Shown here piece by piece: positions 137 to 1,005 of a stretch of DNA of 1,005 bases. Within the stretch, counting starts at the first letter, position 1, and each line of letters begins with the position of its first letter. Made by a program: the position numbers and the translations under genes. The notes below the pieces were generated by a model. It was not told the origin of the DNA. It was given only the letters and a program-made list of their open reading frames with translations, and ran no database searches. The stretch comes from a phage: sequence record OR846573.1. The stretch is one strand, 5' to 3'.

Positions 137-241
137 CTGTTCACCTCTGTTCACCATAAGAAAAAAGATAAGTAATACAGTAAGTTAAAGGGTGAACAAT
201 CGCAGTAATGACTGTTCACCGTCTGTTCACCACTGTTCACC
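137..241. repeat. Iteron cluster: six copies of octamer TGTTCACC (five direct, one inverted), P4 type I iteron-like; candidate crr/origin-type cis replication element
   Basis: Seen in sequence: TGTTCACC at 138-145, 148-155, 213-220, 224-231 and 234-241 (all with a preceding C, i.e. CTGTTCACC), and inverted as GGTGAACA at 191-198. Spacing within clusters is 10-11 bp. Background is AT-rich and non-coding. The identification with P4 alpha-protein iterons is from memory, not from a search. Confidence 0.8.
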
Positions 242-399: not shown

Positions 400-456
400 T
401 GTAAGGTTACCGGAACAAATTCCCCCTGTTGCGTCTGCTGAAAATATTCACAAAAT
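400..456 (+). promoter_or_regulatory. Activator-dependent late-type promoter for the AlpA/Vis-like gene: TGT-N12-ACA dyad (400-417), weak -35 TTGCGT (429-434), weak -10 CAAAAT (451-456)
   Basis: Seen in sequence: the dyad centre at 408.5 puts a predicted start near 463. The weak -35 and -10 hexamers (16-bp spacer) sit at the matching positions, and the ATG at 520 follows after a leader of about 57 nt. A partial second dyad (TGC 436-438 ... ACA 450-452) lies about 36 bp downstream of the first. Weak core hexamers are expected for an activator-dependent promoter. Confidence 0.4.
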
Positions 457-519
457 AAAGCGCTACCCGAAGCCGGACGGACTTATCCGGTGCTGTATGG
501 ACATTAACGAGGTAGCCCG

Positions 520-786: not shown

Positions 787-1005
787 TGATGCCCGCTCTG
801 CAAAAACTCCCTTTTTCTGGCTTGCCTTTTTCCGGCATTTGCGGATATAGTTTTTCCGCTGCCGCAAAATCGGCAGCCGGGCGTGAGAACCCGAGTATGT
901 TATCGGCGACATATGACGCGCCATGCGTCTTTTTTTGTGTCGCAATCAACGCCACAGAGCGCCAGATTATGGTGTGGCGTGTGGTTTGCCGTGCAGGTAT
1001 GATCC
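783..1005 (+). CDS. Possible 3'-truncated ORF of unknown function, start overlapping the upstream stop (ATGA); alternative internal start at 897
   Basis: Seen in sequence: three in-frame ATGs at 783-791; the first overlaps the TGA of the upstream gene. The frame stays open for 74 codons to the window edge (about 3 percent chance in random sequence), but two minus-strand frames are also open here, so stop-poor composition may explain it. The translation (MMMPALQKLPFSGLPFSGICGYSFSAAAKSAAGRENPSMLSATYDAPCVFFCVAINATERQIMVWRVVCRAGMI...) is Cys-rich and not recognisable to me. A hairpin plus T-run lies inside it (915-936). Confidence 0.25.
   Translation, partial: MMMPALQKLPFSGLPFSGICGYSFSAAAKSAAGRENPSMLSATYDAPCVFFCVAINATERQIMVWRVVCRAGMI
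822..851 (+). promoter_or_regulatory. Possible sigma70 promoter: -35 TTGCCT (822-827), 18-bp spacer, -10 TATAGT (846-851)
   Basis: Seen in sequence: 4/6 and 5/6 matches to the consensus hexamers with an acceptable spacer. Position immediately downstream of the regulator gene would fit an early promoter of a P4-like left operon, but this is by eye only. Confidence 0.25.
858..877. promoter_or_regulatory. Perfect 7-bp inverted repeat GCTGCCG-caaaat-CGGCAGC; candidate operator or 5' RNA stem-loop
   Basis: Seen in sequence: GCTGCCG (858-864) and its reverse complement CGGCAGC (871-877) around a 6-nt loop. It lies just downstream of the putative -10 at 846-851, i.e. at the predicted transcript start. 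No T-run follows on either strand, so it is not an intrinsic terminator. Confidence 0.3.
915..936 (+). terminator. Candidate weak intrinsic terminator or attenuator: GACGC-gccat-GCGTC hairpin followed by seven T
   Basis: Seen in sequence: 5-bp GC-rich stem (915-919 / 925-929), 5-nt loop, then TTTTTTT at 930-936. Strand-specific: the minus-strand transcript would have the A-run before the hairpin. The stem is short, so termination is likely partial or regulated. Confidence 0.3.

Follow-up and report, generated by a model that had tools for sequence, protein, structure and literature searches.

The segment at positions 400–465 of the analysed window (the whole stretch of 1,005 nucleotides of the phage sequence record OR846573.1) is very probably the late promoter PLL of a P4-family satellite prophage which, judging from its sequence and its relatives, would be activated by delta or Ogr through a partial dyad and would receive a second input from a block located upstream. 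Such a feature is already known, as it is the described PLL of P4, and in this respect the finding is correct but ordinary. The orthology with PLL is argued from the position of the segment between the origin iterons and vis, its identity with P4, its distance to the early promoter PLE, the presence of a delta gene, and the geometry of the dyad; the sequence features, the P4 homology, the geometry and the delta gene in the same element are direct observations. The first-pass annotation had proposed an activator-dependent late promoter at this place, and this proposal was supported by the homology to the P4 PLL, the geometry and the delta gene, although it was incomplete, as the input of the helper Cox protein was missing from it. 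The coordinates of the features are collected in Table 1.

Table 1. Features of the 1,005-nucleotide window related to PLL, its divergent neighbour Psid and the downstream vis and PLE regions.
Feature	Position	Strand	Remarks
Second TGT-N12-ACA dyad on the Psid side	3–20	−	Centre about −17.5 of the inferred Psid start
TGT-N12-ACA dyad of the divergent late promoter Psid	41–58	−	Centre about −55 to −55.5 of the inferred Psid start
Three units of about 10–11 bp: CTGGAAGGGTC, TCAAAGGGTTC, TGAAGGAACTGGA	337–378	−	In place of the P2 Cox boxes found in P4; candidate Wphi-type Cox operator
TGT-N12-ACA partial dyad TGTAAGGTTACCGGAACA	400–417, centre 408.5		Predicted delta/Ogr zinc-finger activator site of PLL; read from sequence
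Weak −35-like hexamer TTGCGT	429–434	+	3/6 match to TTGACA; identical in P4
−10-like hexamer CAAAAT	451–456	+	4/6 match to TATAAT; identical in P4
Predicted PLL transcription start	460–465	+	7 nt past the −10 hexamer, like P4 Psid
Shine-Dalgarno GAGG of vis	509–512	+	Read from sequence; conserved in relatives
vis (orf88), AlpA-family excisionase and regulator, 88 aa	520–786	+	Predicted first gene of the PLL transcript
Early promoter PLE, TTGCCT-18-TATAGT	822–851		Promoter scan
C4 antisense target a1/b1 (Rfam)	845–897
isrK (Rfam)	858–935		71 bits; match begins at model position 1
Terminator-like hairpin with downstream T run	915–939 (stem 915–929)

Alignment of the window with P4 revealed 93.9% identity over P4 positions 9550–8554, in reverse orientation, along a region that spans ori, PLL, vis (orf88), cI, and PLE. 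Mapping of the P4 annotation located on the window the Psid side of the sid–vis intergenic region, ori, ORF88 (vis), and the beginning of the immunity region. Identity was 100% with many E. coli O157:H7 chromosomes and with a complete P4-like satellite found at tRNA-Leu in this serotype; of the 5426 complete E. coli genomes, 1059 had a match to the window. The satellite that contains the window in strain FRIK944 is complete and adjoins tRNA-Leu, with the order integrase, restriction-modification pair, psu, delta, sid, vis, kil/cI region, epsilon, orf151, cnr, and alpha. The delta protein of the satellite matches that of P4 at 164 of 166 residues, and the element carries its gene outside the window, at a distance of ~1.3 kb. 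Also beyond the window, the genes of two enzymes, a type II restriction endonuclease and a cytosine methyltransferase, lie between int and psu in this element (at 4367–6774 of L167), and the int–psu interval of P4-like elements is a position described as a defence hotspot. Within the window, TGTTCACC was detected six times at 138–241 (plus strand, five; minus strand, one), against 0.06 expected by chance, and corresponds to the type 1 iterons of the P4 ori.

The dyad, the hexamers TTGCGT and CAAAAT, and the gene beginning at 520 were all found where the first-pass annotation had positioned them, and all of them can be read directly from the sequence. Its further claim, that the dyad is centred 54–55 bp upstream of a predicted start near 463, agrees with our calculation, which gave −54.5 for a +1 at 463. 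The two hexamers are separated by a spacer of 16 bp and together match the sigma-70 consensus at 7/12 positions, a core promoter so poor that RNA polymerase would be expected to need help. A generic sigma-70 scan of the window with a threshold of 9/12 matches left PLL uncalled, which fits a weak, activator-dependent promoter.

By chance, the window should have about 0.36 TGT-N12-ACA dyads, and three were counted (Table 1), a number reached by 2 of 200 shuffles; the same search of the window found no second exact dyad near PLL. Since a single dyad is weak evidence alone, the weight of the PLL dyad rests on its position and its homology. The expected count, together with the weakness of the hexamers, is also what could be invoked in favour of a chance origin of the dyad and the hexamers, with vis being constitutive or expressed by read-through from upstream. 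However, all three dyads lie at the two P4 late promoters, the geometry at PLL equals that of Psid, and the site is kept at a fixed offset in the relatives, so that coincidence appears to us extremely improbable.

With respect to P4 itself, the alignment showed a single base difference along positions 418–520. The dyad of P4 at the same place is TGTAAGACAGCCTGAACA, which differs from that of the window in 5/12 spacer bases, with TGT and ACA unchanged. The P4 PLL (X51522, about 9087–9150) is likewise located between ori and vis, with identical −35 and −10 hexamers and leader, an unchanged offset of TGT and ACA, and a downstream gene and a distance to PLE as in the window. Apart from the bases of the dyad spacer, the difference between both promoters is found upstream, where P4 has a block of P2 Cox boxes and the window has another cassette.

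A consensus of TGT-N12-ACA has been published for the promoters that depend on Ogr/delta (PMC3931495). As an internal control, we used Psid of P4, with the dyad TGTGTCAGGGCTGGCACA and the −10 hexamer CACAAT, at which the centre of the dyad is 48.5 bp away from the final base of the −10, versus 47.5 bp at PLL. Psid resembles PLL in its TGT-N12-ACA, its poor −35, its CA(C)AAT-type −10, and the distance from dyad to −10, which agrees within 1 bp. In contrast to PLL, it has an extra dyad at about −17.5, and its own dyad is exact also in distant relatives (TGT-N12-ACA in 31/32 diverged genomes), whereas at PLL exact dyads are confined to the P4-type class. The external control was the RefSeq record of P2, in which activator binding sites and starts are annotated for the Ogr-dependent promoters PP, PO, PV, and PF. 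The centres of these annotated sites fall at about −55 to −58 from the annotated starts, and the sites belong to a common consensus family with that of the window. The P2 sites are imperfect (TGT-N12-CCA at PO and PF, TGT-N11-ACA at PV, TGTTGTCTGGTAGTTCTACAAATGA), whereas the site at the window PLL is an exact match. Because of these imperfect P2 sites, the exact motif has to be taken as a guide and not as a rule, being neither necessary nor sufficient.

In motif, spacing, and distance to the −10, the dyad matches the delta/Ogr sites found at Psid and at the late promoters of P2, which also argues against the binding of another protein to it, such as Vis, in an autoregulatory manner, or a replication factor. 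This alternative could be considered because the rep_origin feature of P4 (9086–9809) covers the position homologous to the PLL dyad, and because Vis reportedly regulates PLL, as described by Polo and colleagues in 1996. Nevertheless, the iterons bound by alpha have a different sequence (TGTTCACC, at 138–241), and we consider a binder other than delta or Ogr very unlikely.

The conservation of the predicted delta/Ogr site was analysed on 42 loci of Vis relatives from other Enterobacterales and about 120 IMG/VR contigs with a shared core promoter and leader. As CAAAAT was part of the pattern used to collect these relatives, no independent support can be drawn from its constancy. In the P4-type relatives (class A), 48 of 49 sites presented an exact PLL dyad at a constant offset, with most of the variation in the central spacer (TGTAAG[GA][CT][TA][GA]CC[GT]GAACA), and the −35 TTGCGT was nearly invariant, with TTGCAT in one of them. 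The P4-type relatives are highly similar overall, and for this reason the invariance of TGT and ACA has low statistical weight; the conservation of the half-sites in class A is consistent with a function of the dyad but not strong proof by itself. The sole exception in class A was the P4-type locus L098, a natural half-site mutant in which TAT replaces TGT (ATTATAAGACTGCCGGAACA).

Class B, formed by more distant P4-like satellites, comprised 58 IMG/VR sites, mostly from other genera. In these, the dyad position reads CTGTTGTGTGGTG....ACTACAAAATGAC, corresponding to TGT-N13-ACA or TGT-N11-ACA, a sequence that resembles the activator site of the P2 PV promoter. In the class B sites and in loci L006–L043, some 41 bp separate this position from the conserved −10 block that follows. 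Class B satellites retain the core promoter of PLL and its leader without an exact N12 dyad.

The only stretch at which the alignment of the window with P4 is strongly diverged lies at about 290–415. Here, P4 presents the ori type 2 repeats CTTTAAGTGG, which on the other strand are P2 Cox boxes, TTAAA(G/C)NC(A/C). The Cox protein of P2 binds the region upstream of the P4 PLL and activates this promoter, resulting in the derepression of the prophage (PMC3936717), and the note to the cox gene in the P2 record also has Cox activating the PLL of P4. The Cox protein of Wphi has been reported not to activate P4 and to recognise a different repeat (PMC5009727). Upstream of the window dyad, no TTAAA(G/C)NC(A/C) box was found, even with one mismatch allowed; the units present in the window resemble instead the operators of the Wphi-Cox family. 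Like the P2- and Wphi-type Cox operators and the Cox boxes of P4, the window cassette is an array of ~10–11-bp units, located on the strand opposite to PLL and in the position that the Cox boxes have in P4.

Along the class A sites, the ~45-bp block between conserved flanks appeared in at least three discrete forms, that of P4 in 21 sites, that of the window in 10, and a third one in 18. These cassettes were compared with Cox operators by local alignment, with 1000 dinucleotide-preserving shuffles as the null and, for the Wphi-Cox family, a set of 48 distinct operators from 80 loci. The P4-form cassette (L001, 1838–1885) scored 31 against the P2 operator, with 0/1000 shuffles as high, and 19 against the Wphi-Cox-family operators, with 892/1000. 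For the window-form cassette, the scores were 12 against the P2 operator (965/1000 shuffles as high) and 29 against the Wphi-Cox family (7/1000), and for the third form, 14 (827/1000) and 29 (7/1000), respectively. The window cassette TCCATCCGGACTGGAAGGGTCTCAAAGGGTTCTGAAGGAACTGGA could be aligned end to end with the operator of a helper (L240), TCCAGCCG--CTAGAACGTTTTCAAACGGTTTTGAAAGGGCTGGA, and its identity with the best helper operator was only about 73%. In addition, a profile built from 20 helper operators had its sole match in the window at 337–378, on the minus strand, with an E-value of 2.5 for a database of 1.29 Mb, equivalent to about 0.002 when scaled to the window alone. In satellites of the window form and the third form, matches to this profile also accumulated at this place, and none was found in P4.

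The signal of the cassette came only from the local alignment and the helper-operator profile. A BLAST search of the cassette against phage records returned nothing relevant, and none of the 40 sampled genomes with a Wphi-type cox was labelled as O157:H7. The satellite contigs and helper contigs that were sampled had no isolate genome identifier in common. When the 12-nt repeat of Wphi was used as a simple pattern on the cassette, it gave a single match, with 2 mismatches and no better than chance, and this approach was discarded. The comparisons described above support, but do not prove, that the block at 337–378 is a mimic of a helper-specific Cox operator. Moreover, it is quite possible, although a little short of an even call in our judgement, that the control of PLL is modular, in such a way that a constant delta/Ogr dyad would be combined with one of at least three upstream cassettes, each being a copy of the Cox operator found in a distinct class of P2-like helpers.

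The presence of this Cox-operator-like cassette raises the alternative that the promoter is real but mainly driven by a Cox-type protein of the helper acting on the 337–378 repeats, with little contribution from the dyad. Such a scheme would be in line with the activation of the P4 PLL by P2 Cox from upstream boxes and with the persistence of the core promoter in the class B relatives that do not have the exact N12 dyad. It is at odds, however, with the maintenance of the dyad half-sites in 48 of 49 P4-type relatives whatever the upstream cassette, and with the presence of a delta gene nearly identical to that of P4; besides, the delta/Ogr and Cox inputs are not exclusive in P4. We consider it improbable that Cox is the main driver, and we favour a delta/Ogr-activated PLL to which the upstream block would provide a second input.

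Regarding the region downstream of the promoter, the vis product matched PF05930 (Phage_AlpA, winged-helix) with an E-value of 7e-21 and 74 bits, versus a cut-off of 21, and it coincides with the Vis protein of P4 at 87 of 88 residues. A putative stem in the 5' leader of vis (462–516, pairing GCUACC with GGUAGC and overlapping the Shine-Dalgarno region) was dropped, as the fold of 460–530 was no better than those of shuffled sequences (z 0.36); both of its arms are invariant in the relatives, so there is no covariation. Further downstream, the combination of the isrK match, the C4 target, and the TTGCCT-18-TATAGT hexamers leads to the assignment of PLE, with a start near 858. The predicted PLL start at 463 is located 395 nt upstream of this PLE start, taken as the point at which the isrK match begins. 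In 1988, Deho and colleagues reportedly placed PLL about 400 nt upstream of PLE, a figure with which the distance in the window agrees.

The binding of delta or Ogr near −55, the recruitment of the polymerase, and a transcript from vis through the immunity region are established for P4 and P2. According to this, in the satellite described here, TGT-N12-ACA, centred ~55 bp upstream of the start, would be occupied by the delta of the element or by Ogr from an infecting helper of the P2 type, and this activator would recruit RNA polymerase. The transcript would begin near 463 and extend along vis, through the PLE and immunity region, and into the replication genes. The block at 337–378 would act as the second input, at the place where the helper Cox binds in P4 and wakes the prophage, and Vis would exert negative feedback. 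For the start site, the binding of the activator, the dependence on it, and the negative feedback by Vis, we infer from published work on P4 and P2.

In conclusion, the vis/alpA gene of a common E. coli prophage is, with a confident annotation, located behind the well-studied, helper-responsive promoter PLL and would not be constitutive. The polymorphism of the cassette is the one lead worth following, and it may be new; a search of the available literature found no report of a helper-specific modularity of cassettes at PLL. From its sequence, the cassette next to PLL hints at the existence of swappable helper-sensing modules. If this is true, the O157:H7 element would be woken by the class of helpers with a Cox of the Wphi family and not by P2, and the cassette would be a swappable determinant of the response to helpers, which would explain the helper specificity of P4-like satellites and make it predictable from their sequence.
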